From NCBI GenBank assembly GCA_029258825.1, contig JAPDKA010000003.1, forward strand, positions 66,065 to 130,064: a DNA stretch of 64,000 nt, read 5' to 3'. Shown piece by piece: positions 16,455 through 63,375 of this stretch (positions are counted from its first letter, which is position 1; each line of letters starts with the position of its first letter). This DNA comes from an archaeon. GTDB lineage: Archaea; Nanobdellota; Nanobdellia; Pacearchaeales; JAPDKA01. A model generated the notes under the pieces. It worked only from the letters and a program-made list of their open reading frames with translations. It ran no database searches and had not been told where the DNA came from. A program made the translations under genes and the position numbers.

Positions 16455-17702
16455 ATGAGAAATGCATATGAAGTAAAATGTGAGCCAATTTTATGCAGTA
16501 AATGTAAAGGCAAAGGATTATGTGGTATGCCATGTCCAATTCTCGCTAGACTCAAAGCAATTCATAAAACATTGAGCGATGAGGTATATGGCAATAGCCC
16601 TCCAGAAATATTTGTTGGAAGAATAGGCTATCCTTATGTTTATTCTGGCATATTAAGCCCTAATGAAATTGGAGAAACAAGCATATACAGCAGGCCGGAG
16701 TTATGGTTCAAAAATAATGCTGGCATAACTGATATAATTGAATATAGAACAAAACTTGTGTACTGCAGAGCAAAAGTGAATGTAAAAAATAGCTACTGGA
16801 ATAGGCGTATTATTGAGAGCATACAAGAGATTTCAGCCAGCTATAAACCAGTTGCTGTAGAAATCAAGCTAAAGCATAAACCAAAAGTAAAGCTTAGCTT
16901 CGATGCTGTTACGCCTCTCACAACAAACCCTGCAGAATTGCAAAAGTTAAGGATTGATGAAAACCCCAAAATAAAACCAAAAGTTGAAAAGCTTATTAAT
17001 GATGATGTCAAAGCAAGTGAAGCAGTAATACAGTTATACAATGCTAAAATCGAAATCAGCAGTATATATCAAGTGTTATCGGCAGGTTTGCTCGGCGTAA
17101 AACTCCAAAGACGTCTTGTGCCGACAAGGTGGAGTATAACAGCAACAGACGACATAATAAGTAAGTTTTTACTTAACAAAATAAAATATTACGATACTAT
17201 AGATAAGTTCATGGTGTTTCATTCCGATTATCTTGGCAATCATTATGAATTTATTTTGCTGCCATCAGTTTTTAGGTTTGAAGTGTTAGAAGCAAAGATG
17301 CCTGGTAGCGTTTGGAATCCTGGCAAGGAGTTATTTATCATGCAAGACTATGAGGATGTTTTTGGCAGAAAAACGTATGCAGAAAATGTAACAGGTGCAT
17401 ATTATGCTAATAGGCTTGCTGTTGCAGAATACTTAACACGCATAAGAAGGCAAGCTGCATGCCTTGTGCTGCGTGAAGTTCGTCCAGAGTATTTTGCACC
17501 ATGCGGCGTTGGCATTTTGCGAGAAGCGAGCAGGGATGCTTTCACGAGAAAGCCAGAGGTATTTGAAACATTGGAAGAAGCATTAAAGACAGTTGCATCA
17601 AGGTTAAAACTTAACATAAATGTGTTCATTAAAAAAAGTTGGTTACTAAAACAAATAAAACAACAAAAAACATTGTTCGAGTTTGTTAATAAAAATCACT
17701 AA
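16455..17702 (+). CDS. hypothetical protein, possibly NreA-like (archaeal DNA-repair-associated DUF650/DUF651 family)
   Basis: 415 aa with an N-terminal Cys cluster (CEPILCSKCKGKGLCGMPCP) reminiscent of Nre N-termini. The assignment is tentative. Its last 86 bp are duplicated about 2.9 kb downstream. Confidence 0.35.
   Translation: MRNAYEVKCEPILCSKCKGKGLCGMPCPILARLKAIHKTLSDEVYGNSPPEIFVGRIGYPYVYSGILSPNEIGETSIYSRPELWFKNNAGITDIIEYRTKLVYCRAKVNVKNSYWNRRIIESIQEISASYKPVAVEIKLKHKPKVKLSFDAVTPLTTNPAELQKLRIDENPKIKPKVEKLINDDVKASEAVIQLYNAKIEISSIYQVLSAGLLGVKLQRRLVPTRWSITATDDIISKFLLNKIKYYDTIDKFMVFHSDYLGNHYEFILLPSVFRFEVLEAKMPGSVWNPGKELFIMQDYEDVFGRKTYAENVTGAYYANRLAVAEYLTRIRRQAACLVLREVRPEYFAPCGVGILREASRDAFTRKPEVFETLEEALKTVASRLKLNINVFIKKSWLLKQIKQQKTLFEFVNKNH
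17611..17696. repeat. 86-bp direct repeat, copy 1 (attL-like); it forms the 3' end of the upstream CDS
   Basis: Identical to 20530-20615: ttaacataaatgtgttcattaaaaaaagttggttactaaaacaaataaaacaacaaaaaacattgttcgagtttgttaataaaaat. Confidence 0.9.
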
Positions 17703-18685: not shown

Positions 18686-19957
18686 ATGTTACAACGAAAA
18701 GAAATAAGATATATTGTTAGTCTCTCTGCTATTGAAGATTTTATAAAAGAAATAAACAAAATTGCTAAAGAAGAAGTTTTTTCAACACCATATAATTGGA
18801 CGATATATTTCAACAATTCAGAACATGAAGTTCCATTTGAAGTCTCAATTAAAGGAAGAAAATATAGTAACCAACCATTTCATGGATCTCTTAATCTTGA
18901 CGAGAAATGGATCTTTGAAATTAAAGAAGACTACATAAACAAAAATTGTCGTTTTCGAAGAAAGAAAAGGAAAGTCCTAACTTTAGAAGAAATTTTAAAT
19001 ACACTTTCTGAAATGACTAATATAAAAACAAATCAAATCACTTCTCCATTGAGACCTTACCTACTTGATAGCTACAGAAGAAGACACTTTTTACTTGATG
19101 AAAATATCAGAATAACAATTGATACCGATTTAACTTATTATTTATTTGAGGACACATTTAACGGAAAGCAGATCGGAAATGAAAATTATGCTCGAATCGA
19201 AATCAAAATACGTTCAGAAAAAATTAATTCTACAAAATTTCATAAAATCGATTCGCTATTAAAAGATTTAGAAGCTGAAGAAACAATATCTAAAAAAGAT
19301 ATGGCTTACAATTTATTATCCAACTACTTAAGAAAGAAATCTGGAAGAAAAGTTGCTACTGGCGATGTAGAAATTGAAGCAAAATTATTATTGTCCAGGG
19401 ATGAGCAATATATATTTCATAAAATAAAGAGAGACTTTTATTATGGGTTAATAAAAGGGTTTACACTTTTAGATAATTTTCCTTATACTTTGGAAGGTGG
19501 AAAATTACATAAATACTTAGTGACTTCGAAAGACGAATTCTTTAGAGTGGGTATAAAAGGAAAATCAAAAACAATCATTCAAAAAGAAGGCTTCAAAGTA
19601 GTAGACGATCCTTACGGATTAAAATGTATTATAAAAAGAAAGGAAATCAGAAGACCATTCGATTCAAATATCGATTTATCTAAACTACAATTTAAGACGA
19701 TTTATCGAAAAAGAAAATACTTCTTAGTGGAAAATGAAAAAGATAAAAAAACTTACTGTATTCTAATAGATAGGTGCACCCATGAAGCCTCAGAATTGTT
19801 TCAAATGGAAATTGAAGGTTTATTAGATAGTCCGCTCAAAAACGAGGAAAGAGAGATTATTAGAGATATAGGATATTTGACATGTTGTCTAATCACAAAA
19901 TATCCTGTTCTTAAGCCAACTACTTTAACAAAATTGGAATGGCTAAGAAAAATATAA
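18686..19957 (+). CDS. hypothetical protein with CYTH/triphosphate-tunnel-metalloenzyme-like motifs (possibly tandem CYTH-like domains)
   Basis: Second half starts GDVEIEAKLLLSRDEQY (the ExExK signature of CYTH) and ends FQMEIEGLLD (the C-terminal acidic CYTH motif). The first half has related RIEIKIR/EIRYIV strings. The assignment is tentative. Confidence 0.4.
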   Translation: MLQRKEIRYIVSLSAIEDFIKEINKIAKEEVFSTPYNWTIYFNNSEHEVPFEVSIKGRKYSNQPFHGSLNLDEKWIFEIKEDYINKNCRFRRKKRKVLTLEEILNTLSEMTNIKTNQITSPLRPYLLDSYRRRHFLLDENIRITIDTDLTYYLFEDTFNGKQIGNENYARIEIKIRSEKINSTKFHKIDSLLKDLEAEETISKKDMAYNLLSNYLRKKSGRKVATGDVEIEAKLLLSRDEQYIFHKIKRDFYYGLIKGFTLLDNFPYTLEGGKLHKYLVTSKDEFFRVGIKGKSKTIIQKEGFKVVDDPYGLKCIIKRKEIRRPFDSNIDLSKLQFKTIYRKRKYFLVENEKDKKTYCILIDRCTHEASELFQMEIEGLLDSPLKNEEREIIRDIGYLTCCLITKYPVLKPTTLTKLEWLRKI

Positions 19958-20529: not shown

Positions 20530-20615
20530 TTAACATAAATGTGTTCATTAAAAAAAGTTGGTTACTAAAACAAATAAAACAACAAAAAACATTGTTCGAG
20601 TTTGTTAATAAAAAT
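20530..20615. repeat. 86-bp direct repeat, copy 2 (attR-like), intergenic
   Basis: Perfect copy of 17611-17696. In the gene's frame it would read ...FVNKN-stop, against ...FVNKNH-stop at copy 1. Confidence 0.9.
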
Positions 20616-21662: not shown

Positions 21663-22304
21663 TTATTTCAAACCTAGTAAACGGTTAAGCATGATTACTT
21701 TTCTTCTGTATTTTATCCGCAAATAAAAACCAAACAACAATCCTGCAATCAAACCGCCGAGATGTGCTGTATTACCAATAGGCAAACCTGCTGCAGCTGA
21801 AGCAAGCCACAACACACTTAAAGCAATTATTGAAGCGATCCACATTGGCAATGGAAAAGGAAAAGGCATTATGTAAACCTTAAGTTTTGGTGTGAGTACA
21901 GCAATACAACCAGCCAAACCAAAAATTGCACCGCTTGCACCAACAGCAAGAGCATTCATGTCACGTTGAAATACAAATGCAAGCAATACAAACAAAAGAG
22001 AAGCAGAAATGCCACTAATAAAGTACAGCCACAAAAATCTCTTTTTGCCAATAATTTGTTCTAAAAAAGAACCGAGAAAAAACAAACTCATCATGTTAAT
22101 AAACAAATGAAAAAAACCTGCATGCATAAACATACTAGTAACGATCGTCCACAAATATTTTCCATTTATAATGTTTATCGGTTTTATCGCAATAAACTCA
22201 ACAAAATTTCCTGTTAGAAGTAACGGAAACATTGCAGCGAATAAGACACTATTTACAATAATTAACCACAGTGTTGCACTTAATTTGTGCTTGTATGATC
22301 GCAT
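21663..22304 (-). CDS. rhomboid family intramembrane serine protease
   Basis: Catalytic-Ser motif GASGAIFGLAGC and catalytic-His motif NTAHLGGLIAGLLFG, with 6 TM helices. Confidence 0.8.
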   Translation of the reverse strand: MRSYKHKLSATLWLIIVNSVLFAAMFPLLLTGNFVEFIAIKPINIINGKYLWTIVTSMFMHAGFFHLFINMMSLFFLGSFLEQIIGKKRFLWLYFISGISASLLFVLLAFVFQRDMNALAVGASGAIFGLAGCIAVLTPKLKVYIMPFPFPLPMWIASIIALSVLWLASAAAGLPIGNTAHLGGLIAGLLFGFYLRIKYRRKVIMLNRLLGLK

Positions 22305-24459: not shown

Positions 24460-25521
24460 TTATTTTTCTGTTTTTTGCACGTCAATATTAAGCCAAGGAT
24501 AAAACATAAACCTCCAGTCTTGCCGCATTAAACAAATAGTATCTGCAAAACACTTTATTGCTTTCACATATGCTTTTTGCTTGTTGTAAGCATACAGTGC
24601 TGAATCAACAGAGTGATTAAAGTTATAAAGCGAAAGATAGCAAGCAACCATTCCAATAGCGTCATGCAAGCTAAAAATATCAAGACCATCGCTATTAACA
24701 TCGCAAAGATCAAGTAAACCTGAATTATAAAGCATTAAAATCGTGCTCGGCAGAAACTGAGCAGGGGTTATTGCACCAGCAAAACTGCAGTTGCAAAAAG
24801 GATTGTTAATTATGCCTTGTTCAAACAAGTTAAACAATGCATCCAGTTGTTTTATTGCAAATTGCTGCTTTCCAGCAAGATATAGCGTGACTAATGTATT
24901 AAACAATTTTTGCTTTCCGCAGTAATTGCCAAAGCATGATTCTAAAGCGAGAATTGCTGTTATAATCTCGATAGGTTTATGTTGCATATCTAATGAAAAT
25001 AAATTCACAGCATTAATTAAATCTTTCTCATAAGTGTTGATAAAATTTAATGCTTTGTTAAACATTTTTGGCGTATAAAAACCGAGCTCTGGTTTTAAGT
25101 AATAATCTTCGCTAATTTTATCGATTTTGTTGTAATGCTTCAATGTTTCTCTTAATTTTGCCACATCATAAATTTGAAAGTCATCGCTTGCAAACAATTT
25201 TTCTGCTAACCCTCCATAACGCGATGTCAAATAAAGCTTTAACTTAGCAAGATCATCAAGCTGTTTTCTTTGATGTTTACAGCCTTGAGCAACTTGTTCT
25301 AGTTTACGCTGGGTAATTTGAGCAGTTTGTTCAGTTACTTGTTGCTCAATCTGACATTGAGCTCGACTTGCTCTGCATTGGTTTTCATAATGGCAAGGAA
25401 AAAGAAAAGGCAAGATAAGTGCAAAATTTAAAGCATTAAACCGTGTCATGCTGTAATTAAAGCAAAGAAATATAAAAAGGTTATTGAAAAATAAAGGAGT
25501 TAACAAATTATAGACATTCAC
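24460..25521 (-). CDS. family-3 (MltB/SLT_2-like) lytic transglycosylase-like protein with an N-terminal hydrophobic segment
   Basis: ILALESCFGNYCG matches the catalytic-Glu ES motif. AGAITPAQFLPSTILMLYNSG matches the GA.GpaQFmPsT motif of MltB-type lytic transglycosylases. The N-terminal hydrophobic segment could be a signal peptide or anchor. Confidence 0.6.
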   Translation of the reverse strand: MNVYNLLTPLFFNNLFIFLCFNYSMTRFNALNFALILPFLFPCHYENQCRASRAQCQIEQQVTEQTAQITQRKLEQVAQGCKHQRKQLDDLAKLKLYLTSRYGGLAEKLFASDDFQIYDVAKLRETLKHYNKIDKISEDYYLKPELGFYTPKMFNKALNFINTYEKDLINAVNLFSLDMQHKPIEIITAILALESCFGNYCGKQKLFNTLVTLYLAGKQQFAIKQLDALFNLFEQGIINNPFCNCSFAGAITPAQFLPSTILMLYNSGLLDLCDVNSDGLDIFSLHDAIGMVACYLSLYNFNHSVDSALYAYNKQKAYVKAIKCFADTICLMRQDWRFMFYPWLNIDVQKTEK

Positions 25522-36473: not shown

Positions 36474-37490
36474 TTAAATTAGCAATAACGCAAGCATTAA
36501 GCCAGATAAACAACCAACAGTGATCGGAGGCATAGCAGGATATGGTTTATCATCACTAAACAACATGAGCAGCAATAAAGCAAGAGTTGAGCATAAAGTA
36601 ACAATCAACGCATATAACCAACCAAAATAAACTAAAACCACAGAGGCAAACATTAAGCTGAATGCGAGATCACCTCCGCCAAGAATTGCAACAGCAACCT
36701 TAAGTTTTTTTTGCTTTGCTTTCTTTTTTATGCGCGCTAAGTATTTTGATTTTAGTAATTGTAATTGCTTTTTACTCAAATAAGGAATCAATAATCCTGC
36801 AATAATGCCTAGTTTCTGTATTTGAAATTTTGCCATCTCAACCATATGGCCTGTTTTAAATACAGCTATCACATCATAAAGCGAAATGAGCAACAATAAA
36901 GCAATGATTATTTGCAGGTTTAGTAATGGTAAAAAAATCACTGCAATGCCGGCATAAACAAACAACTCACTAAGATTATGCGCTATAATATCACGTTTAA
37001 ATACTTTAAGGTATGTGAAAAATAAAGCAAGTAAAACGCCTAATAATTCTGCAAGATTAGTAAAAGCAAAGCTAAAGCGTGAAAGTAGCGGGTAAAGCAA
37101 TAAACTAAAACTTATTGTTAACGCGATAAATATTACAAAAGCAAACCAAAGTTTAATTGCTTTTAGGCTTTTTATTCTTGTAAAAAATAAAAAAATGATT
37201 GTAGCAATAACAATAGCCATAATAAGGTTAGTAAGCAAAACCAAAGCATCAATCGTTTGTTTTATTTCAACTTTTTCTGGAACAAGTTGACTGATCAGAG
37301 TTAGGTTTTGCTTTTGTGAAATCTGACTTGGTTGGGTTATCTGCTTTAATGTTTTATTTTCAAACACTGGAAAAAAAGTCACAGGAGTAGCAAAATATTT
37401 TTGGTAATTTGCAACAACAAATAAGCCTATAATATGGGTTAGAAGAAACATGCACAACAACAAAGCAACAATCTTTGGTGTGTGTTTCAT
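36474..37490 (-). CDS. presenilin/signal-peptide-peptidase-like (A22 family) intramembrane aspartyl protease
   Basis: Polytopic protein with a YD motif (LYDVIAVFKTG), a GxGD motif (AILGGGDLAF) and a PAL-like motif (YPAMPPI) in the canonical order. Confidence 0.55.
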   Translation of the reverse strand: MKHTPKIVALLLCMFLLTHIIGLFVVANYQKYFATPVTFFPVFENKTLKQITQPSQISQKQNLTLISQLVPEKVEIKQTIDALVLLTNLIMAIVIATIIFLFFTRIKSLKAIKLWFAFVIFIALTISFSLLLYPLLSRFSFAFTNLAELLGVLLALFFTYLKVFKRDIIAHNLSELFVYAGIAVIFLPLLNLQIIIALLLLISLYDVIAVFKTGHMVEMAKFQIQKLGIIAGLLIPYLSKKQLQLLKSKYLARIKKKAKQKKLKVAVAILGGGDLAFSLMFASVVLVYFGWLYALIVTLCSTLALLLLMLFSDDKPYPAMPPITVGCLSGLMLALLLI

Positions 37491-42235: not shown

Positions 42236-43720
42236 ATGGGAAAGAAGAAAACACGGTCAAAAAAAGAAAATAAAGAAAAGAAACTCGAACGATTGATAAA
42301 GAAATGTGTTGATTTAAAAAACGGAAATCGTGTAAGACAGATAGTAAGGATTGTAACGAAGGCTTATGAGAAAAATCCTGAAAAATTAAGAAAGTATTTT
42401 AACCACAGAAACGAATTAATAGCAGGAATTGCTACATCGGCATACTATTCTTTAACAGGAAATATTAAGCCAATCCGAAACATCGAGTATGGAGGGTTAG
42501 GAGCAATAATAGAAGAGAGTAAAGAAGGATTAAAGTTTGAAAGAAAGCAGTTGTGGTTTGCAAAATTGAGTGGAGAAGCATTAAAAAGATCTAAAAATTC
42601 TGGAAAAGCATTATGGTATTCAGAAAATTCGGGAAGGGCTTTAGAATTGTCAGTAAATTGTGGACAAGCTTTACGGTATTCTAAGAATTTTGGAGGGGCA
42701 TTAAACCATTCTAAAAATTCGGAACAAGCTTTATGGTACTCTATAAACTATGAAGGGGCGTTGGATCGTTCTGAGAATTGTGGTAGAGCACTAAAAGAAT
42801 CTAGAAATTCCGGGTATGCATTATGGTATTCTAAGAATTATGGTAAAGCACTGGAAAATTCTAAAAATTTGGAAGAGGCATTAAAGAACTCTAAAAATTT
42901 TGAGCAGGCATTACGGAATTCTGAGAATTCAGGAGAGGCGTTACAGAGTTCTATGAATTCTGGGCAAGCATTACAGTATTCTAGGAATTTGGGAGAAGCC
43001 TTAAAATATTCTAGAAATTGTGGAGAAGCCCTCTACGGTTCAGACAATTGGGACGAAGCGTTACAGAATTCTGAGAATTGGGGAAGGGCGTTACAGAGTT
43101 CCGATAATTGGGGAAAGGCGTTACAGAATTCAGAAAATTCTGGGCAAGCATTATGGTATTCTGGGAACCAACGAGAAGCGTTACAAGGTTCTAGAAATTC
43201 GGAATCTGCCCTAAGGTATTCTATAAATGTGGGGTCAGCATTACAAAATTCTAAGAATTCTGGGCAAGCATTATGGTATTCTAGGAATTTCAATCATGCA
43301 TTACAGTTCTCAGAGAACTCGGACGAATCTTTACATTATTCTGAAAATGTTGGGGTGGTATTAAGGTATTCAAAAAACTTCGGAAAGACACTACACCACT
43401 CTAGGAATAGTGAACGTGCACTTCAATATTCTAAAAATCTAGAAGAAGCATTACAGGATTCTGAGAATCGAGAAAAAGCATTGCAATATTCTGAGAATTC
43501 AGGAAAAACTTTACAGCATTCTAAAAACTATGGGGAGGCCTTACAACATTCCAAAAACTCAGAATATGCTCTATGGTATTCTAAAAATTGTGAAGATGCA
43601 TTAAAATATTCTAAGAATTCAGGACAAGCATTAAAACACTCTCAAAATTCAGAAAATGCCTTAAAAAAATCTAAAAATTCTGTTAGAGTGTTATGGTATA
43701 TAAAAAGAGGAATAAGGTAA
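42236..43720 (+). CDS. tandem decapeptide-repeat protein (about 38 copies of ALxYSxNSGx) with a roughly 100-aa non-repeat N-terminal domain
   Basis: One continuous ORF. The repeat consensus is A-L-[QWK]-[YN]-S-[KE]-N-S-G-[QE], encoded by near-identical 30-bp DNA repeats. Composition is atypical. Confidence 0.7.
   Translation: MGKKKTRSKKENKEKKLERLIKKCVDLKNGNRVRQIVRIVTKAYEKNPEKLRKYFNHRNELIAGIATSAYYSLTGNIKPIRNIEYGGLGAIIEESKEGLKFERKQLWFAKLSGEALKRSKNSGKALWYSENSGRALELSVNCGQALRYSKNFGGALNHSKNSEQALWYSINYEGALDRSENCGRALKESRNSGYALWYSKNYGKALENSKNLEEALKNSKNFEQALRNSENSGEALQSSMNSGQALQYSRNLGEALKYSRNCGEALYGSDNWDEALQNSENWGRALQSSDNWGKALQNSENSGQALWYSGNQREALQGSRNSESALRYSINVGSALQNSKNSGQALWYSRNFNHALQFSENSDESLHYSENVGVVLRYSKNFGKTLHHSRNSERALQYSKNLEEALQDSENREKALQYSENSGKTLQHSKNYGEALQHSKNSEYALWYSKNCEDALKYSKNSGQALKHSQNSENALKKSKNSVRVLWYIKRGIR
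42548..43690 (+). repeat. 30-bp tandem DNA repeat array (coding), about 38 units
   Basis: Period-30 repeats (consensus about GCATTACAGAATTCTGAGAATTCTGGGCAA) visible across the whole span. They lie inside the CDS 42236-43720. Confidence 0.85.
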
Positions 43721-55534: not shown

Positions 55535-56050
55535 ATGGAAAAACATACATATATAGCAATATTTTTGATAACATTACTTGCTGGTGTTGCAATAGGTTTA
55601 AGCATAGCAGCATACTACCAAAGCAAAACTACTGCAGTAACAACAATGGCATGGTTTGATTTGTTTAAGAAACAACAAATGCAAAAACAATTACCACCGC
55701 CAGACCATGTTATGCCTTGGGAAGAAACGAGTATGATTGATATCAGTGATTTTAAAGACAAAATAAATGAAACAAGATTGCAAAAGCTTATACAATATAA
55801 TGCAAACTTAACAAATGCAACAAAAAAATTGACAGCAGTAAGCAATGAATATGAACAAGCTCTAAAAGAAGCAATAAAACAAGAGATAATTGCGGCAATG
55901 AATGAAGCTAACGGTAGTTTTGACAAATTTACTTCAGGAGTATTGTGTGGAAGTAACTGTGAGTACATAGGAAAGCACTGTAAATATTGTTGGTGTAAAA
56001 CATGGTTCGGCTATCCAATAGCAGTAGTCAAGTGTACAGATTACTTTTAA
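55535..56050 (+). CDS. hypothetical secreted/membrane-anchored protein with a Cys-rich C-terminus
   Basis: An N-terminal TM helix or signal peptide, and a C-terminal CGSNCEYIGKHCKYCWCK...C segment. Confidence 0.4.
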   Translation: MEKHTYIAIFLITLLAGVAIGLSIAAYYQSKTTAVTTMAWFDLFKKQQMQKQLPPPDHVMPWEETSMIDISDFKDKINETRLQKLIQYNANLTNATKKLTAVSNEYEQALKEAIKQEIIAAMNEANGSFDKFTSGVLCGSNCEYIGKHCKYCWCKTWFGYPIAVVKCTDYF

Positions 56051-56092: not shown

Positions 56093-56698
56093 TTATTTTC
56101 CCATTAACCACAACTTAATCCAACCAAGTTTTGGTATTCTAGCGATAGCTTTGCCGACAATTGCGTCTTGTGTTATGTTAAACTCAAAAGGCAATTGACC
56201 TTGGTTGTTGTCGCCTTTAGTTTGATAATAGCAATATCCATTAATGCATGTTTTATTTACAATTCTATGAATGACAGGTACTGCATTCTTATTTCCCATA
56301 GGCCAGAAAATGATTACATCTCCAATATTATAAGCATCTTTGTTTATACCTTTAACTATAACAACATCGCCTTTATACAAACCTTGTACAAATGGCCAAC
56401 CCATAAATTGAGCCTTGCTAATATTATGCTTCACATACCATAAACCATAACTAATCCAATAATCATCAAAACCACAGCAATGTTCCATGCTTGTTGATTC
56501 TATGACAACAAAAGGCATTTCTGTATGCAGGATCGCACTTGCGCAAGGAAAAATGACAAACTTCACAAGCAAAAAAGCAAATACAAGCATGAACAAATAA
56601 CTCCAATTGCTCTCCCACAAATAGTATTTAAGCAATTTGCAAAACTTTGCTCGTGTTAATGATCTTGCTTTATCTTTGCTTGATTTAACTTTATTCAT
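56093..56698 (-). CDS. signal peptidase I (archaeal Sec11/S26B type)
   Basis: An N-terminal TM helix, a catalytic Ser region (VVIESTSMEH) and the conserved His region (VIHRIV). A BRE/TATA (CCGAAATATCTTTAAATA) lies about 30 bp upstream. Confidence 0.6.
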   Translation of the reverse strand: MNKVKSSKDKARSLTRAKFCKLLKYYLWESNWSYLFMLVFAFLLVKFVIFPCASAILHTEMPFVVIESTSMEHCCGFDDYWISYGLWYVKHNISKAQFMGWPFVQGLYKGDVVIVKGINKDAYNIGDVIIFWPMGNKNAVPVIHRIVNKTCINGYCYYQTKGDNNQGQLPFEFNITQDAIVGKAIARIPKLGWIKLWLMGK

Positions 56699-56800: not shown

Positions 56801-58195
56801 ATGATTAGGTTTGTTAATAGAAATAGAGAGTTGAACATTTTAAATAGAGATTGGAATAATTTGAATAATGGATTTATAGTTATTTATGGTAGAAGAAGGA
56901 TCGGAAAGACAAAGCTTATAGAGGAATTTGTAAAAGACAAAAAAGGAATAAGTTATACTGCCGAAGATACAAGCAAGAAAATTCAGATAAGAGAATTCAA
57001 AGATGCTATAGCAAGTTTTTTGGATGATGATTTTTTGAAAAACCAAGAGATAGTAAGTTGGTCTTCTTTGTTTGAGTATTTACAAAAAGTGCTAGATAGA
57101 AATAAGCGTTTTTATATATGGATAGACGAATTTTCTTATTTGTTAAAAAATGATAAATCATTACCAAGCATATTACAAAAATTCATTGATAAATTCTTGA
57201 GGAACTCTAAAATTTTCTTTATTGTAAGTGGCTCATTATTTGGTTTAATGAAAGAAAAGGTTTTATCAAATTCTTCCCCCCTTTACGGAAGGAGAACAAG
57301 AGACATATTACTTAGAGAACTAAATTTCGAACATGCAATCAAATTCGTTAATTTTAATTTTGAAGACAAATTAAAAACATTCCTTACAATTGGAGGAATT
57401 CCAGAATATCTTTTAGTAGCTTCAAAATTCAAAACTTATGAAGAATTTATAAAACAAGAATTTTTTACTCATGAAGGATATTTCTACAGAGAGCCTTATT
57501 TCCTACTATCCCAAGAATTTAAAGAGATAAGGATCTATTTTTCTATACTTAATGCGATTGCATATGGTAATACAAAACCAAGCGAGATAGCAAATTTTGT
57601 TGGGATAAAAACAAGGGAAATATACCCTTATCTTGAATTACTTAATGCTTACGGATTCGTTACAAGAGAGAAACATCTATTCAAAGAAAAGCTAGGAATC
57701 TATTTAATCAAAGATTGTTTTTTTGATTTCTGGTTTAATTTTGTACATAAGAATAGAGAGCTTATAGAAAGAGGAGCTTATGAATTAAATAAAAAAAAGA
57801 TAAACACATATCTTGGAAAAAGATTCGAGATTTTCATTAAAGATAACTTCCATTACTTTTTCAAGGATTATACAAAAATCGGCAGATGGTGGCACAAAGA
57901 CAGAGAAATTGATATTGTAGCTATCAACGAAAAAAACAAGCAAATTCTTGCTTGTGAATGCAAATGGCAAAGCAGGGTTAATGCTGAAAAGATAGCTAAA
58001 GAACTAAACGAAAAGCTTGGCTATGTTGATTGGCAAAAAGATAAAAGAAAAGAAAGTTTTGCTATTTTTGCAAAAAGCTTTAGCAAACGCATTAAGGAAT
58101 GGCAAGGCAAGCCTGTTTATTGCTTTGATTTGAAGGATTTAGAGAAAGCAATGAAACACAAAACAAAACACAAAAAATTTTTAAAGAGTAAATGA
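56801..58195 (+). CDS. archaeal AAA-type ATPase fused to a DUF234 domain
   Basis: Walker A IYGRRRIGKTKL, Walker B WIDEFSYL, then a C-terminal DUF234-like region. This is a common archaeal architecture. Confidence 0.6.
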   Translation: MIRFVNRNRELNILNRDWNNLNNGFIVIYGRRRIGKTKLIEEFVKDKKGISYTAEDTSKKIQIREFKDAIASFLDDDFLKNQEIVSWSSLFEYLQKVLDRNKRFYIWIDEFSYLLKNDKSLPSILQKFIDKFLRNSKIFFIVSGSLFGLMKEKVLSNSSPLYGRRTRDILLRELNFEHAIKFVNFNFEDKLKTFLTIGGIPEYLLVASKFKTYEEFIKQEFFTHEGYFYREPYFLLSQEFKEIRIYFSILNAIAYGNTKPSEIANFVGIKTREIYPYLELLNAYGFVTREKHLFKEKLGIYLIKDCFFDFWFNFVHKNRELIERGAYELNKKKINTYLGKRFEIFIKDNFHYFFKDYTKIGRWWHKDREIDIVAINEKNKQILACECKWQSRVNAEKIAKELNEKLGYVDWQKDKRKESFAIFAKSFSKRIKEWQGKPVYCFDLKDLEKAMKHKTKHKKFLKSK

Positions 58196-61100
58196 GTTGG
58201 GTGAGTATGAAGAGGGGTGTAAAATATTTAATTATGTTATTTTTTTTCATGTTATTATTATTTATGAATATCGATCACAACGTTAAAGCGGCAACACAAA
58301 AAAAAGAGCTATTAATATTATTTACGTTGAAATTAAATAGTGATGGGAGTACACACCCACATACTACAAACTTGAAAGGATGGGTAATAGACTTTTCCGA
58401 TCAACAACAACCAACAAAGAGATTAAAGAAAGAAGGGGAAAGCAATAATATTTTTGTTGAGAATGTACCAATAGAGTTTGAAACAGGAGTATGGGATCAC
58501 AATTTTGGATATGGTGTGGGAGCTACTTTGGGTGATTACGATTGTGATAAAAAACCTGATTTGATAATAGCATATGGTACAGGTTGGAACAATAACAAAC
58601 CTCAATGGATAAAATTATTAATATTTGAAAATATAAAACTAGTAGAACGTGGCGGTGTGGTAACATACTATGAACTTCAATATGATAGAGAAAAAGAAAT
58701 TGATTTAACAAGAGATTATGATGGAATAAAATATTTACTTGGTGATCATGTTGGAGGAATAGGAATCACATTTGTAGGATGTAGAGGCGACATTAGTAAA
58801 TTTAGAATAGTAGTATTCGATCCTGAAAAAGACTGTAAAGCTAGAGCAGTCGATGTAGAGTTATGTAACTGTAAATACTATGGAAGTTCAAGTATAAGTT
58901 GGTGGAGTGGTTGGCCAAGCGGAAGTATAGCAAATGAAAGAGGAAGTGGAGTCGGAGTAATTAATAAAACTTATTTTATGATATATACTACTTACTTTAA
59001 GGAAACTGAAAATCTTCTTGATATATTCGAATGTGATGAAAGTTCTGAGAAGTGTACAAAAAAAGAGGGAAAAGATCTTAATTGGAATGTAGCTTCTGGC
59101 ATAGGGGCCACATCAAAATCAAAAGATACGGTAATTATAGCAATTACTTCCTATAAACCAAATGATGATGTTGCAAAAATAAAATTGATGAAGCTAGACA
59201 CTACAAAGTTACACGAATTTGGTGTTTTCAATTCACCAAGATTAAGTGAAGGATTATCGACATTCGGCATTGGTTTAGCACGGGCCGTTATAAACCCTTT
59301 TAGTGGGAAACTTATAGAAGACTGCTCAAATGGCTTAGATGATGATTTCGATGGAAAGATTGATGATAATGATAAAGATTGTGATGAAAGTCAGCATTGT
59401 GGTGATGGAATAGACAATGATGATGATGGTAAGAAAGATTGCGCCGATCCAGACTGCTGGGGAAAAACAGGTCCAAATGGAGTGAGATGTTGTGGTTCAG
59501 ATGATGATTGTGGTAATAAGTGTAAAAATTGTAAGTATTATAAGGGTGAATGTAATAATAACATATGTACATGGGAGGAACATATAGGTACTGACGAGGA
59601 TAATGATGAACACGATGTAGAGTGTGGATATCAATGTGAATGTAATGACAGTGATGATACTATTCATAAAGACGCAACTGAAATCTGCACTGACGAAATA
59701 GACAATGATTGTGATGACCTAATCGACTGCGATGATCCTGATTGTACAAACAACCCTGCGTGTGCTCCTCAAACAGAAACAGACTGTTCAAACGAAATTG
59801 ATGATGATGGAGATGGTTTTATTGATTGTGAGGATCCTGACTGTGCTGGACGTGAAGGTCCAAATGGGAAAATTTGTTGTCAAGAAAGCTGGGACTGTCC
59901 TGGATGGCCAACACAATTTTGTAGTAAACCTACCCACGCATGCACATATTGTAGTAAATCTGGTGAATGTAGCATAGAAAAATGCGATTATAAAATATTC
60001 GGATGTTGTATTTCTCAAGGAAAAGTATGCAAAGATTCTACATGCCAAACAGCATGTCAAGTAGTAAAAAATCGCAAAATTAATTTAAAAGAGTTGGAAG
60101 ATATTCCACAGTGCTTAGTACTTCGAGGAAACGTAACTCTAGATTGTCAAAACCAGATATTAGACGGAAGTCATACTAATTTTCCTGCTGCGATAGTTAT
60201 TTCTAACGAAAATGGAGAGGACGGTCCGATAATAATTAAGAACTGTAAACTACAAAATTGGGTATACGGAATTTTAGCATATTATTCTGCAAACATTATA
60301 TTAGAGAATGTAGAAATAAATAACTCTAAACGACAGTGCGATACAGGAGGTATAGGAGCAGCATTCTACGAAAGTAAAGATATAACAATAATCAATAGCA
60401 AGATTGTTAATAACAGTTGGGATGGTATTGGAATCTACGCTAGACGATATAATGTAAGTAACATAACAATACGTGGTAGCACCATTTACTACAACGGCTG
60501 GCAATCAACAAACGGCGGAGCTGGTATTTCGTTCTATACCCCAAGCAACAACAAGTTAAGTGATATAACGGTAAAAAACAGCCATATTTACAACAATTCA
60601 TTTTCAGGTATATACTTGAAAAATGTTGAGAATGTCAAAATAATAGGCAACAACATACATGATAATAACATAGGTATTAACGTTAATGGAAATAGTAGTG
60701 GTATAACGATAATAGACAACATAATACACAGAAACGTAAATAATACAAACAATTTTCCAGAGAATATTAAAAAAGATGAATATGGTTTAAATGAAGCTGG
60801 ACAAGGAATAAGGCTTAAAACAATTGTTGGAGAAAAAATACGAAATGTAACAATAAAAAATAACGAGATTTACGATAATGATGCAGAAGGTATTGATAGT
60901 TACTGGAGGGATAGTGGAAACTTATTTGATATTCAAATACTACAAAACACATTAAAAGACAATAGACATGGCATTTCTCTGAAGAATGTTGACAGATTCG
61001 TAATAAGAAATAAATTAACTCAAACTAATGTTTTTAAAAATGGAGAGGAACCATTATGGGAGTGGGAGTGCGTCCCAATTGAAAACCATGACTCTGCGAT

Positions 61101-63375
61101 CACAATAGCTAAAAGCAAAAATGGTATTATTAGCGTATGCTCTATTAATAACTGCTTCGGTGAATACGCAAGAGGTATAGGAATAGGCGACTCAGAAAAT
61201 ATTATTATCAGGTATACAAAGGTAACAAACTGTCAAGGCAATGGCACAGTTTTCTGGAGAAGCAGAAATATCACATTTATCAACGATGTTTTCTGCAACA
61301 ATACGGTTGATGTTAATAATTTTACTGGGAATAGCGAGATAACAATAGAGAATGTGACGTGTGATAAGAGTATAAATTTTAAGTGCACAAATAATTGTAC
61401 GCCCGGCAGGGAAGAAGGAAGATATATACTGGCTACTTGTTGGGAAAAGGGAAATTTCAAAAAATGCAATGGAAGCTATGAGGTAAAGGTTGATACTACT
61501 GTGAACGCTAGAGTAGAGGTTAACACATCATTGATAAATGGAAGGAAAGCAAAAGTAAACATAACAATCTATAAACGCACGTGCTGGTCTAGTGGTGTTA
61601 CTTTTGCTGTGTGGAGTGGAATGGCAACTGGAGGGATACCACCAGATGATGGAGAACAAATTTGTGAAGATAAATTAATCGACACAGCGGTTGTAGATGT
61701 AACAGATGGTATAGCAAGACTATCGTTTACGCCTGAAGAGCTGGCCACTCGAGAGGAAGACTCATGGTACTGGTTTAAAGCAAGATTGATAATAGATAAC
61801 AACGTTATAGAAGAAAAAAACAGCTACAGGCTTTATGTTTATAGAGAACTACCAAACCGCCCACCAGTAGCTATAATAACATCGCCAACGCCGGAATGTG
61901 ATCCAAACGTGCATGAATGTATATGCTATGAGAATGGAGTAGCAAAAGAATGTGGTCCTGATAATCCATGTGGCGACAATATAGGCCCATGCTATTACAA
62001 AAATAATACAGCAATCTGGTTTAATCAAACAAGTTATGATCCTGACGGTTACGATGATATTGTTGAATGGTACTGGAACATGAGTGATGGAAAGACATAT
62101 AATGTAGATTGGAGCAATAATAAAAATGTGAATCTAACACATAAATATCAAGCTAATACTGTTCCAGCATTTTATATGCCTTTTGTGTATTTAAAAGATA
62201 AAGCAAAAAATGAATCAATAGCATCTTCTAATATATGGGTAATTACTAAAGACATTACAAATTGGCCACCGATATTAGAAATATTAAGTCCAAAACAAGG
62301 AGAAACTATAAATAAAAATAAAATAGAATTGAAAATACGATTTGAGGATCCTGATAATGATATTTCTGAATATTCATTTTGGTATCTTTTATCCTCATAT
62401 GATGGAAGATATACATACTCTACAATATGTAGTCCAGCACAATCATTAGATTGCCCTAACATAACACTCACACTTCCTATAAATGGAAAATATGGCCTAC
62501 TAGTTTTTGCTTTTAATGGTGAAAGTAATAATAACTGGGCAATATCTTATATAGAATTCGATGTAGAAGGTATTGATGAATGTGTATGCTCAACAAGCAG
62601 CGGGCTAATTCCATGCGGAATGTGTTTCGATAATGGAAAATACTGCAATGATAAAGGGGAGGTGGTTGATAATTGTACAGCGTGTGGATGTAACGATGGT
62701 TATTACTGTGCAGAATCAGGCAAGTGTGTAGAAGGCCACACTACTGAAGAGTGTGCGCAAAAAACAGATATAGAAAGTTGTCATGAATTGGAAGGATGTT
62801 ATTGGGACGATTGTAAAGCATGTGAAGATGTGACAACTCCATCCTGTAGTGTATATACAAATGACACAACATGTTGGCTTGATCCTTGTATATTTAATGA
62901 TGAGGAGGCACAGGCGATAACTTCAAATTTAAATAATGGAGAACAGTTTATAGGCGGAAACTGTGCTTGGGACGAAACGCAGAATAAATGTTATTATAAC
63001 TATACAGTTATTGGGCCTAATGGTGGGTATATTTGTAAGAAAACAACAACTGTAGTACAAGAATGTAGTAATGTTAACAGAAAAAGAATTGTAGAAATAA
63101 AGTACTATAAATGTGATTTGAATGGGGAAAATTGTGTAGAAGATAGTTCAAATGAGTGTCCAGGTCAACCTAGAGGGATAGTCGAATATAACTGCCCACA
63201 AACACCTGGCGAGCAATTGCCAGCAATTAGCACAACAGCTATAGGTCTTGCTATAGCATTAGTCATACTTTACTACATGATTAAAGCGAGCAAGATTGGC
63301 AGTAAGAAGCCAATTAAGAAAAGAGGGAAAAAGAAAAAGAGAAAATCAAAAAAGAGAAAAGTCAAGAAAAAATAG
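58192..63375 (+). CDS. giant (1727 aa) cell-surface protein: signal peptide, MopE-like Cys/Asp putative metal-binding repeats, a right-handed beta-helix (PbH1-like) region, a PKD-like domain, and a C-terminal TM anchor with a poly-Lys tail
   Basis: N-terminal hydrophobic leader. At least 5 C-x-D-x-DDD-DG-x-ID-x-D-DC-x-DPDC repeats (aa about 375-560). NNxIxxN/GIxL beta-helix repeats (aa about 640-900). A DPDGYDDIVEWYWNMSDGK PKD-like motif. The C-terminus is PGEQLPAISTTAIGLAIALVILYYMIKASK + KKRGKKKKRKSKKRKVKKK. Confidence 0.75.
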   Translation: MSWVSMKRGVKYLIMLFFFMLLLFMNIDHNVKAATQKKELLILFTLKLNSDGSTHPHTTNLKGWVIDFSDQQQPTKRLKKEGESNNIFVENVPIEFETGVWDHNFGYGVGATLGDYDCDKKPDLIIAYGTGWNNNKPQWIKLLIFENIKLVERGGVVTYYELQYDREKEIDLTRDYDGIKYLLGDHVGGIGITFVGCRGDISKFRIVVFDPEKDCKARAVDVELCNCKYYGSSSISWWSGWPSGSIANERGSGVGVINKTYFMIYTTYFKETENLLDIFECDESSEKCTKKEGKDLNWNVASGIGATSKSKDTVIIAITSYKPNDDVAKIKLMKLDTTKLHEFGVFNSPRLSEGLSTFGIGLARAVINPFSGKLIEDCSNGLDDDFDGKIDDNDKDCDESQHCGDGIDNDDDGKKDCADPDCWGKTGPNGVRCCGSDDDCGNKCKNCKYYKGECNNNICTWEEHIGTDEDNDEHDVECGYQCECNDSDDTIHKDATEICTDEIDNDCDDLIDCDDPDCTNNPACAPQTETDCSNEIDDDGDGFIDCEDPDCAGREGPNGKICCQESWDCPGWPTQFCSKPTHACTYCSKSGECSIEKCDYKIFGCCISQGKVCKDSTCQTACQVVKNRKINLKELEDIPQCLVLRGNVTLDCQNQILDGSHTNFPAAIVISNENGEDGPIIIKNCKLQNWVYGILAYYSANIILENVEINNSKRQCDTGGIGAAFYESKDITIINSKIVNNSWDGIGIYARRYNVSNITIRGSTIYYNGWQSTNGGAGISFYTPSNNKLSDITVKNSHIYNNSFSGIYLKNVENVKIIGNNIHDNNIGINVNGNSSGITIIDNIIHRNVNNTNNFPENIKKDEYGLNEAGQGIRLKTIVGEKIRNVTIKNNEIYDNDAEGIDSYWRDSGNLFDIQILQNTLKDNRHGISLKNVDRFVIRNKLTQTNVFKNGEEPLWEWECVPIENHDSAITIAKSKNGIISVCSINNCFGEYARGIGIGDSENIIIRYTKVTNCQGNGTVFWRSRNITFINDVFCNNTVDVNNFTGNSEITIENVTCDKSINFKCTNNCTPGREEGRYILATCWEKGNFKKCNGSYEVKVDTTVNARVEVNTSLINGRKAKVNITIYKRTCWSSGVTFAVWSGMATGGIPPDDGEQICEDKLIDTAVVDVTDGIARLSFTPEELATREEDSWYWFKARLIIDNNVIEEKNSYRLYVYRELPNRPPVAIITSPTPECDPNVHECICYENGVAKECGPDNPCGDNIGPCYYKNNTAIWFNQTSYDPDGYDDIVEWYWNMSDGKTYNVDWSNNKNVNLTHKYQANTVPAFYMPFVYLKDKAKNESIASSNIWVITKDITNWPPILEILSPKQGETINKNKIELKIRFEDPDNDISEYSFWYLLSSYDGRYTYSTICSPAQSLDCPNITLTLPINGKYGLLVFAFNGESNNNWAISYIEFDVEGIDECVCSTSSGLIPCGMCFDNGKYCNDKGEVVDNCTACGCNDGYYCAESGKCVEGHTTEECAQKTDIESCHELEGCYWDDCKACEDVTTPSCSVYTNDTTCWLDPCIFNDEEAQAITSNLNNGEQFIGGNCAWDETQNKCYYNYTVIGPNGGYICKKTTTVVQECSNVNRKRIVEIKYYKCDLNGENCVEDSSNECPGQPRGIVEYNCPQTPGEQLPAISTTAIGLAIALVILYYMIKASKIGSKKPIKKRGKKKKRKSKKRKVKKK

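Follow-up and report, generated by a model that had tools for sequence, protein, structure and literature searches.

What kind of protein is encoded by the 1,727-residue open reading frame near the end of this 64,000-nucleotide stretch of archaeal DNA (the window), and what might it do at the cell surface? The frame and its layout are real: the coordinates and length given in an earlier note on this DNA (58192-63375, 1727 aa) were reproduced exactly, and the proposal made there, of a multidomain protein that is secreted to the cell surface, fixed by a transmembrane (TM) anchor, and built from metal-binding Cys/Asp repeats, a β-helix, and Ig/PKD-like modules, is supported. Taking the architecture and the mechanism set out below together, we consider it moderately probable that this low-GC, uncultured archaeon makes a type I membrane-anchored cell-surface protein of adhesin-like character, predicted to be glycosylated and stabilized by disulfides and Ca2+. 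As such, it would be an unexceptional member of the adhesin-like group of surface proteins known from archaea.

The gene's first ATG (58192) and the TGA stop of the ATPase gene before it share bases (ATGA), and the two genes may be co-transcribed. A second ATG at 58207, encoding M6, is an alternative start; GGGTGA and a TTTTTAAA box (58178-58185) lie upstream of it, and the database copy of the protein (P0001, 1722 aa) begins there. The window has an archaeal context that includes TFIIE-alpha, FttA, aEF-2, and an archaeal signal peptidase, and the source archaeon possibly belongs to a DPANN-type lineage. SecY has only 39-48% identity to diverse archaea. An SLT_2 lytic transglycosylase and a rhomboid-family protease (21663-22304) are also encoded within the window.

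Table 1. Features of the surface-protein gene and its neighbors, in window coordinates.
Feature	Residues (aa)	Position	Strand	Basis or remark
Archaeal signal peptidase I gene, 1.5 kb upstream		56093..56698	-	TIGR02228, 61.8 bits vs cutoff 51.85
ATPase_2 + DUF234 gene, upstream		56801..58195	+	Stop overlaps first ATG of the large gene
Whole gene, 1727 codons + stop	1-1727	58192..63375	+	ORF confirmed exactly, 1727 aa
Signal-peptide-like N-terminus	1-33	58192..58290	+	Hydropathy; -3/-1 rule by inspection
N-terminal orphan domain, farthest from membrane	34-377	58291..59322	+	Without profile
Cys/Asp-rich region	378-640	59323..60111	+	NF033662, 73.3 bits vs cutoff 41, 4 stretches
Acidic repeat 1, degenerate, CSNGLDDDFDGKIDDNDKDC	378-397	59323..59382	+	D12 copy 59328-59381; 8/9 teneurin Ca-ligand positions
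Acidic repeat 2, CGDGIDNDDDGKKDCADPDC	403-422	59398..59457	+	D12 copy 59403-59456; 8/9 ligand positions
Cysteine knot 1, WGKTGPNGVRCCGSDDDCGNKCKNC...GEC..., directly after repeat 2	423-462	59458..59577	+	GPNG-CC regex
PF11617 'Cu-binding_MopE' motif, CNDSDDTIHKDATEICTDEIDNDCDDLID, overlaps repeat 3	484-512	59641..59727	+	32.6 bits vs cutoff 27, E=9.2e-8
Acidic repeat 3, CTDEIDNDCDDLIDCDDPDC	499-518	59686..59745	+	D12 copy 59691-59744; 8/9 ligand positions, 4/6 Cys
Acidic repeat 4, CSNEIDDDGDGFIDCEDPDC	532-551	59785..59844	+	D12 copy 59790-59843; 9/9 ligand positions
Cysteine knot 2, AGREGPNGKICCQESWDCPG..., directly after repeat 4	552-622	59845..60057	+	GPNG-CC regex
Right-handed parallel β-helix, Asn/Ile/Gly-rich	~654-1056	60151..61359	+	PF13229, E=7.5e-24, 84.6 bits vs cutoff 25.9
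Region without assignment, 10 Cys, 6 sequons	1057-1256	61360..61959	+	No profile match
PKD-like Ig module	~1257-1345	61960..62226	+	PF00801, 19.6 bits, below 23.5 cutoff
Second Ig-like module	~1360-1455	62269..62556	+	Ig-like_KY and Big_7 below threshold
Membrane-proximal Cys-rich stalk, 26 Cys	1461-1672	62572..63207	+	Composition
Single TM helix, AISTTAIGLAIALVILYYMI	1678-1697	63223..63282	+	Hydropathy windows 1675-1702
Polybasic cytoplasmic tail	1698-1727	63283..63372	+	17 Lys + 3 Arg in 30 residues

Hydropathy windows above 1.6 delimit two hydrophobic segments only, at aa ~6-31 and aa ~1675-1702; the signal peptide and TM helix, whose absence the earlier note would have taken as a refutation, are called by hydropathy and inspection. 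The N-terminus resembles a Sec signal peptide, with MKRGVK as n-region, YLIMLFFFMLLLFM as h-region, and NIDHNVKA as c-region, and cleavage is predicted by the -3/-1 rule, on inspection, between A33 and A34 (V-K-A/A). The archaeal signal peptidase I encoded upstream is likely the processing enzyme. Following Sec export and cleavage after VKA33 by this peptidase, the TM helix would retain the protein in the membrane, while the polybasic tail would stay cytoplasmic (positive-inside rule), perhaps against anionic lipids. Outward from the membrane, a stalk rich in disulfides and a pair of Ig-like modules would lift a right-handed β-helix of ~400 residues, beyond which four teneurin/thrombospondin-type Ca2+-binding acidic repeats and two cysteine knots would form a rigid linker, with the orphan N-terminal domain as the distal tip. 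The β-helix, the tip domain, or both would be the putative ligand-binding part, contacting proteins or glycans of a second cell or of some other surface, and Ca2+ and disulfides would stiffen and stabilize the stalk rather than scavenge metal. The contact with a host that the earlier note suggested is a speculative role.

The ectodomain comprises ~1,640 residues. The protein contains 93 cysteines (5.4%) and 29 N-x-S/T sequons, against 19.8 +/- 3.9 in shuffled sequences, and these are concentrated in the β-helix (12 of the 29). No full-length homologue was found among the 5.8 billion proteins searched. All 138 database matches other than the protein itself have the Cys/Asp acidic-repeat region, and only this region, in common, and an exhaustive search of 1.84 billion representatives with the C-terminal 676 residues returned weak PKD/Ig matches only. 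Several domains of the protein are without detectable relatives.

The Asn/Gly/Ile-rich run previously described as right-handed β-helix repeats matched PF13229 far above the cutoff of this profile, and NosD PF05048 matched as well (E=9.4e-10), with a weak β-helix profile continuation to aa 1056. In the AF2 model, aa 641-840 form stacked strands of partial confidence (pLDDT 50-83), and Foldseek gave PL3 pectate lyases as the best plausible, though weak, matches (TM ~0.5, E~0.02). Against our main reading, such a helix could equally be a glycan-cleaving enzyme. The whole protein might then be a surface-anchored polysaccharide-active enzyme, in which a catalytic pectin-lyase-fold β-helix (a lyase, hydrolase, or epimerase) acts on partner-wall or environmental glycans and the remainder serves as a stalk. 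The nearest solved sequences or folds are indeed enzymes (GH120 xylosidase 3vst, E=0.007; mannuronan C5-epimerases; PL3 pectate lyases), the same role has been suggested for the β-helix proteins of Nanobdella (bioRxiv 10.1101/2023.10.27.564410), and wall-active enzymes occur in the genome, because the window encodes the SLT_2 lytic transglycosylase. However, the enzymes match only weakly (E>0.005; Foldseek E>0.01) and through the generic fold, inspection revealed no catalytic signature (the epimerase DPHD, for instance), and PF13229 and NosD-type helices are common in non-catalytic adhesins too. We therefore regard an enzymatic function as rather unlikely and favor an adhesin-like one.

The tip domain (aa 34-377) had no match in Pfam (E<=10), NCBIfam, PHROGs, or PDB sequences, and its AF2 single-sequence model is uninformative (pLDDT 35.5). 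A G-x-G-[AIVL] motif followed by a hydrophobic strand recurs five times (aa 106, 189, 251, 303, and 359), and the segment FGYGVGATLGDYDCDKKPDLIIAYG is FG-GAP-like in look; we tentatively infer a repeat or propeller domain. On the membrane side of the β-helix, aa 1057-1256 matched nothing in any profile library and nothing but the protein itself in the exhaustive 1.84-billion search, and its AF2 model is of low confidence. The PKD-like domain proposed earlier stayed below threshold in Pfam and gained indirect support from the exhaustive search, where P0122, a protein rich in PKD/Big_7 domains, pairs with aa 1266-1368 in 11 stretches (E=1.3e-21). P0126 and P0129 (Ig_Rha78A_N) align to the second Ig-like module. 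The stalk, which had no match in profile libraries, opens with a 'YC..G..hDNC..CGC..G..C' knot that recurs in P0126 and P0131, immediately behind the Ig-like domains of those proteins; most of the stalk has no homologues or confident models.

By analogy, the protein appears best read as one of the same kind as the methanogen adhesin-like proteins (ALPs) and the 'pectin-lyase-like' proteins of Nanobdella. The ALPs of Methanobrevibacter smithii and Methanosphaera stadtmanae are of the same class, being large proteins with a right-handed β-helix, Ig-like domains, and a single N- or C-terminal TM helix as anchor with a Lys-rich cytoplasmic flank (PMC11532034). They differ in that their anchor is mostly N-terminal and in lacking acidic Cys/Asp repeats and cysteine knots, and no sequence homology to them was detected beyond the generic β-helix profile. 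In the DPANN archaeon Nanobdella aerobiophila, likened here by description only, pectin-lyase-like proteins of 908-1320 aa combine a parallel β-helix with Ig-like folds and dozens of N-glycosylation sequons and have a proposed role in partner-cell contact, whereas other surface proteins of this archaeon are the ones reported to have a TM helix at the C-terminus (bioRxiv 10.1101/2023.10.27.564410). The protein studied here is longer, and its 93 cysteines, four Ca2+-type repeats, orphan N-terminal domain, and 30-residue polybasic tail set it apart.

A structural role in the S-layer or cell wall, such as that of a SlaB-like anchoring subunit, would suit a large extracellular protein, and the numerous sequons, the Ig-like modules, and the TM anchor at the C-terminus recall the candidate S-layer anchors of Nanobdella (bioRxiv 10.1101/2023.10.27.564410). 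However, no S-layer family matched in Pfam or NCBIfam, and the absence of a full-length homologue among 5.8 billion proteins amounts to a lack of conservation, yet S-layer proteins diverge fast. A content of 5.4% Cys in a complex mosaic of adhesin-type modules is atypical of S-layer proteins. An S-layer role is improbable, and the description as a major S-layer protein is not retained.

The C-terminus, ...PGEQLPA-ISTTAIGLAIALVILYYMI-KASKIGSKKPIKKRGKKKKRKSKKRKVKKK, is exactly the string that the earlier note had quoted and likened to an archaeosortase-type sorting signal. Were it a cleavable signal, an archaeosortase- or rhombosortase-like enzyme would remove the TM helix and tail and attach the protein to lipid or wall. 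Its tripartite look, a Pro/Gly stretch (TPGEQLPA) followed by a hydrophobic helix and a basic cluster, is suggestive, and the rhomboid-family protease of the window could be invoked as the enzyme. Nevertheless, the last 72 residues matched no NCBIfam sorting-signal model at E<=10 and lack a PGF, PEF, PIP, or GlyGly signature. Known sorting signals finish in just a few basic residues, and the tail here has 30 residues. Moreover, the rhomboid scores 48.6 bits where the rhombosortase model has a cutoff of 84, no archaeosortase is found among the window's multi-TM ORFs, and no second ORF in the window has such a TM helix with a basic tail. We find a sorting signal highly improbable; the C-terminus reads as a plain type I anchor.

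The Cys/Asp-rich region contains 36 Cys and 68 Asp+Glu (18% Asp, 14% Cys). Four acidic double-disulfide repeats lie in it, together with a single MopE-type motif and a pair of GPNG-CC cysteine knots. The NF033662 match (E=8e-21) places the repeats far beyond chance. Instead of the at least five MopE-type copies claimed previously, NF033662 (4 stretches), the DNA repeat family D12 (copies starting at 59328, 59403, 59691, and 59790), and a regex (three canonical and one degenerate) each count four. That these are metal-binding Cys/Asp repeats stands, but the MopE label is better replaced by the NCBIfam term 'acidic double-disulfide repeats'. A single Pfam PF11617 motif passes threshold, which appears when the segment is scanned alone and is absent from the full-length scan.

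The repeats are probably best described as corresponding to the teneurin-type C-rich core. Teneurins make up four of the six PDB chains listed at E<=10; the teneurin-4 C-rich domain 7plp (E=5.7e-4) is the only chain below 0.01, and the three weaker teneurins have E values of 0.42-2.7. In its crystal structure, this domain, the sole solved-structure relative of the repeats, binds three Ca2+ via acidic residues and is calcium-dependent in its stability (PMC9058538). The core C-x-[DN]-x-x-D-[ND]-D-x-D-x-x-x-D-C-x-D-P-[DE]-C is common to both proteins, repeat 3 being the closest of the four, and the teneurin domain is also related to thrombospondin type 3 repeats. Each repeat keeps 8-9 of the 9 teneurin Ca2+ ligand positions; because only 3-4 of 6 teneurin cysteines align, the repeat fold may differ in detail. 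In contrast to teneurins, the archaeal units are in tandem, are paired with GPNG-CC knots, and stand in a prokaryotic context without YD-shell or EGF repeats. Since the teneurin relative binds three Ca2+ and these ligand positions are kept, calcium would be far likelier than MopE-style copper as the metal of the repeats. That the protein is a MopE-like copper scavenger, as the single above-threshold PF11617 'Cu-binding_MopE' motif might imply, is scarcely credible, given that the MopE/CorA copper site is described as two His and a kynurenine (oxidized Trp) inside a β-sandwich, with a separate structural Ca2+ site (PMC3423442, PMC3912023), while conservation in the repeats is confined to Cys, Asp, Asn, and Gly and extends to neither His nor Trp.

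Proteins with NF033662 and PF11617 from Myxococcota and other bacteria have these above-cutoff profile matches in common with the archaeal protein and otherwise differ in architecture, carrying tens of repeats alongside PPC (PF04151) or other domains. A Nanobdellota archaeon encodes P0076, in which LamG domains are combined with a pilin-like (class III-type) N-terminus; this protein lacks the β-helix, C-terminal TM helix, and polybasic tail, but it too contains, several times, the compound module of an acidic repeat plus a G[KR]xGPNGxxCC knot.

We propose that the open reading frame of 1727 codons at 58192..63375 on the forward strand, which lies exactly where the earlier note had placed it, probably encodes an adhesin-like protein that is exported by the Sec pathway and held in the membrane. 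Hydropathy analysis finds only two hydrophobic stretches, at aa ~6-31 and aa ~1675-1702. The first has the n, h and c layout of a Sec signal peptide (MKRGVK, YLIMLFFFMLLLFM and NIDHNVKA/A), and the second is followed by KASKIGSKKPIKKRGKKKKRKSKKRKVKKK, in which Lys and Arg account for 20 of the 30 residues, bearing out the transmembrane anchor and poly-Lys tail described before. The upstream ATPase_2/DUF234 gene ends in a stop codon that overlaps the first ATG (ATGA), an arrangement that suggests co-transcription, with no evident functional link between the two genes. The second ATG, at 58207 (Met6), is preceded by GGGTGA, with a TTTTTAAA box ~26 nt upstream, and P0001, the database entry for this protein (1722 aa; from a 326,575-bp contig in NCBI and ENA), begins at this Met6; whichever start is used, 58192 or 58207, the N-terminus is in practice the same. 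Cys occurs 93 times in the protein and N-x-S/T sequons 29 times (19.8 ± 3.9 in shuffles), with 12 of the sequons in the beta-helix. After export via Sec, the protein would be cleaved by signal peptidase I, for which a gene is present on the opposite strand 1.5 kb upstream, and would stay in the membrane by means of its C-terminal helix and polybasic tail. The Cys-rich stalk and Ig-like modules would then raise the beta-helix, a Ca2+-stabilised linker and an orphan tip domain off the cell, where these domains could bind glycans or proteins of another surface.

The beta-helix was confirmed by two families above threshold, PF13229 (84.6 bits against 25.9, E=7.5e-24) and NosD PF05048 (38.7 bits against 23.6, E=9.4e-10), each matching in three stretches at aa ~654-938, with a weak continuation to aa ~1056. 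In the AF2 single-sequence model of aa 641-1500 (mean pLDDT 43.9), only aa 641-840 are usable, and these form stacked strands (pLDDT 50-83); the model of aa 30-640 is unusable at a pLDDT of 35.5. A Foldseek comparison with the PDB returned nothing at E<=0.001, the best plausible matches being PL3 pectate lyases (TM ~0.5, E ~0.02). The main rival to an adhesin-like role, that the beta-helix is a glycan-cleaving enzyme, draws on the fact that its weak similarities, in sequence and in Foldseek alike, are all to enzymes of this kind. However, no catalytic signature is evident in the beta-helix, and we regard an enzyme as unlikely. PHROGs gave no kinship with phage tailspikes or depolymerases.

Beyond the beta-helix, the PKD profiles stay below threshold (PF00801, 19.6 bits against 23.5; PF18911, 15.5 against 27), as does a second Ig-like module at aa ~1360-1455 (Big_7 / Ig-like_KY) in Pfam. 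With aa 1000-1675 as query, an exhaustive HMMER search of 1.84 billion representatives found, apart from the protein itself, 11 weak partial matches, all at aa ~1257-1531. The best of these, P0122, is full of PKD/Big_7 domains and aligns 11 of its own repeats to aa 1266-1368, and the Ig/PKD-like assignment is therefore reasonable: the PKD-like module claimed previously falls short of the Pfam threshold but gains indirect support from these repeats. The stalk that follows starts with a YC..G..hDNC..CGC..G..C knot, and two of the weak matches carry the same knot after an Ig-like domain.

Three regions, aa 34-377, aa 1057-1256 and most of the stalk at 1461-1672, have no match in Pfam, NCBIfam, PHROGs or PDB sequences. 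In the N-terminal domain, a recurring G-x-G-[AIVL] motif followed by a strand hints at a repeated beta architecture. We also considered an FG-GAP or beta-propeller fold, given one FG-GAP-like segment, but this motif recurrence is visual and lacks profile support, so it is a low-confidence idea. A bolder reading takes the 344-residue N-terminal domain, aa 1057-1256 and most of the stalk as undescribed folds, the distal domain as a lineage-specific receptor-binding tip and the C-terminal tail as one of a new type. In that case, the tip could decide to which partner cell the archaeon attaches, and the tail, unusually long and polybasic, could do more than stop transfer: it might be a new kind of element for docking or retention in the cytoplasm, binding to anionic lipids, to nucleic acid or to a partner in the cytoskeleton. 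Taken together, this combination is doubtful, and we hold it only tentatively. No template/variable repeat of the diversity-generating (DGR) type was found at the gene, its intragenic repeats being the four acidic units only. The suggestion of a major S-layer protein was not supported: the predicted surface protein is large and anchored, but no S-layer family appears among the Pfam and NCBIfam matches at E<=1, and we consider this role improbable.

A further possibility is that the C-terminus is processed by an archaeosortase, as its resemblance to a sorting signal had suggested. No NCBIfam model, PGF-CTERM-type sorting signals included, matches the last 72 residues at E<=10, and the sequence before the helix, TPGEQLPA, is not a PGF, PEF or PIP motif. 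In known archaeosortase-type signals the basic cluster after the helix spans a few residues, whereas the tail here is 30 residues long. No other open reading frame of the window has the same C-terminal arrangement. A search for an archaeosortase gene, covering the multi-TM open reading frames of the 64-kb window, found none: they encode a ZIP transporter, an LPG-synthase-type protein, a rhomboid, ArsP, a presenilin-like protease and one protein of no assigned type. Going by these C-terminal features and the 64-kb window, archaeosortase processing is very improbable. Read most simply, the C-terminus anchors the protein permanently in type I orientation, and its strongly positive tail is predicted to lie in the cytoplasm. 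As a separate observation, two of the window's genes encode intramembrane proteases, the rhomboid (PF01694, 48.6 bits, under the rhombosortase cutoff of 84) and a presenilin/SPP-like aspartyl protease.

The region between the N-terminal domain and the beta-helix contains acidic repeats that match NF033662, the acidic double-disulfide repeat, at ~73 bits (E=8e-21; curated cutoff 41 bits) in four stretches, each repeat having three Cys inside 20 residues and one more shortly downstream. Copies of the DNA repeat family D12 coincide with four acidic units (59328, 59403, 59691 and 59790), and a regular expression recovers three canonical C-x-[DN]-x-I-D-[ND]-D-x-D-x-x-x-D-C-x-D-P-D-C units and one degenerate unit. 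All three approaches give four units, and the earlier count of at least five copies was therefore not reproduced. A G[KR]xGPNGxxCC cysteine knot directly follows repeats 2 and 4.

Among PDB sequences, the sole match to the repeat region with E<0.01 is the C-rich domain of teneurin-4 (7PLP, E=5.7e-4); the others at E<=10 are three weaker teneurin chains and two chance RNase H chains. The 1.5 A structure 7PLP contains three Ca2+ in octahedral coordination by eight acidic residues and one Asn, resembling thrombospondin type 3 repeats and LDL-receptor A modules, and the stability of the domain is calcium-dependent (PMC9058538). At the nine teneurin ligand positions (E835, D840, D843, N844, D845, D847, D851, D854 and D856), a gapless alignment places D, E or N at 8, 8, 8 and 9 positions in repeats 1 to 4, respectively. 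The six-Cys pattern of teneurin (1-3, 2-5 and 4-6 disulfides) is only partly retained, with 3-4 of the 6 Cys positions aligning; therefore, the repeats would work like the teneurin C-rich domain without being strict members of it. Tucker et al. had already pointed out that the teneurin core and the Pfam MopE motif are alike (PMC3278476). In our protein, PF11617 (Cu-binding_MopE) matches one motif at aa 484-512 (32.6 bits against a gathering threshold of 27), which is reported only when aa 378-640 are scanned alone and is absent from the full-length scan at E<=1. In MopE*/CorA, copper is bound by two His and a kynurenine (oxidised Trp) in a beta-sandwich, and a structural Ca2+ site is separate from this site (PMC3912023; PMC3423442). 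In contrast, the four acidic repeats have no conserved His or Trp, and calling them MopE-like, as was done initially, thus stands as a Pfam label but is misleading about mechanism. Copper scavenging, which the Pfam label might invite, is for the same lack of His and Trp extremely improbable. What the evidence supports is a predicted Ca2+-dependent stiffening of the disulfide-rich linker.

The compound of acidic repeat and GPNG-CC knot recurs in several copies in P0076, a 1296-aa protein of a Nanobdellota archaeon with LamG domains, and the module seems, from these sequences, to be shuffled among archaeal surface proteins. At its own N-terminus, P0076 has a class III (pilin-like) signal sequence (MKTRAQTSVELIIIMAV...). 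The remaining database matches have the acidic repeats alone in common with the surface protein; those with a named source are bacterial (Myxococcota, Bacteroidota and relatives), and many contain PPC domains. No full-length relative was found among 5.8 billion clustered proteins besides the protein itself, and the 138 other matches cover <=14% each, all within the Cys/Asp region. Whole-protein scans of GTDB species genomes and JGI metagenome contigs also yielded no relatives. Two word-index searches, one with the N-terminal domain and the other with the beta-helix and the region after it, found nothing and missed the parent protein too; this type of search seems to exclude much longer subjects, so the two fragment searches are weak negatives. 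The window is archaeal, encoding TFIIE-alpha, FttA/aCPSF1, aEF-2, Nre, Mre11-Rad50 and SecY, with a GC content of ~33% and two tRNAs as its only Rfam matches. Its lineage is sparsely sampled: in the GTDB scan, SecY is just 39-48% identical to Aenigmatarchaeota, Methanosphaera and one Archaeoglobi MAG, and housekeeping proteins including EF-2 and SecY are singletons at 90% identity clustering. That the lineage belongs to the DPANN archaea is plausible.

Adhesin-like surface proteins are an architecture class rather than a homology family, and it is in this sense that we compared our protein with those of PMC11532034 and bioRxiv 10.1101/2023.10.27.564410. In methanogens, adhesin-like proteins have a beta-helix together with Ig-like domains, and their TM anchor is flanked by Lys-rich sequence (PMC11532034). 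The surface protein is alike in architecture, having a secretion signal and TM anchor, a beta-helix, Ig-like modules and many sequons. It is set apart by teneurin-type repeats that come with GPNG-CC knots, by a very large share of Cys, by orphan domains and by the length of the polybasic tail. It fits a class already described, holds no surprise for the specialist and leaves current understanding unchanged. The teneurin-type C-rich core was first discussed as a eukaryotic or algal acquisition (PMC3278476); here it is a tandem building block of an archaeal surface protein, fused to the GPNG-CC knot in P0076 as well. If the organism is episymbiotic, large anchored beta-helix proteins are the ones to consider first for recognition of the partner cell. 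Cataloguing such proteins would be useful for picking targets for cryo-ET and binding studies, and this protein is a candidate for studies of cell-cell contact.

Coordinates of further features of the window
Feature	Position	Strand	Details
Nre gene	16455-17702		3' end is the first 86-nt repeat copy
Perfect 86-nt direct repeat	17611-17696 and 20530-20615		flanks a 2.9-kb segment
VTC-domain ORF	18686-19957		within the 2.9-kb segment
Rhomboid	21663-22304	-	intramembrane protease
353-aa ORF, SLT_2 lytic transglycosylase domain	24460-25521	-	66 bits
Presenilin/SPP-like aspartyl protease	36474-37490	-	intramembrane protease
494-aa ORF, largely ~37 tandem decapeptides (~S-x-N-S-G-x-A-L-x-x)	42236-43720	+	repeats at 42574-43620
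171-aa ORF, N-terminal TM/signal segment, Cys-rich C-terminus	55535-56050	+	...CGSNCEYIGKHCKYCWCKTWFGYPIAVVKCTDYF; no family match
Archaeal signal peptidase I	56093-56698	-	TIGR02228, 61.8 bits against cutoff 51.85; no Pfam match at E<=0.001
Archaeal ATPase_2 + DUF234 gene	56801-58195	+	TrmB-like wHTH

Several other features of the window deserve mention. The segment between the two direct repeats contains, besides the VTC-domain ORF, an unassigned 229-aa ORF and a 124-aa ORF. It may have been inserted, or be a small island, with the repeat as a target-site duplication; we found no integrase, and GC falls to 0.29-0.31 across ~18-30 kb of the window. The decapeptide ORF is encoded by at least 33 tandem 30-nt units and has a basic N-terminus without a signal peptide, a sub-threshold SpoU hit being its only match. 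The 171-aa ORF may specify a small secreted disulfide-rich protein. Finally, SLT_2 is a murein-cleaving enzyme type, and its presence in an archaeal genome could point to contact with bacterial cell walls.
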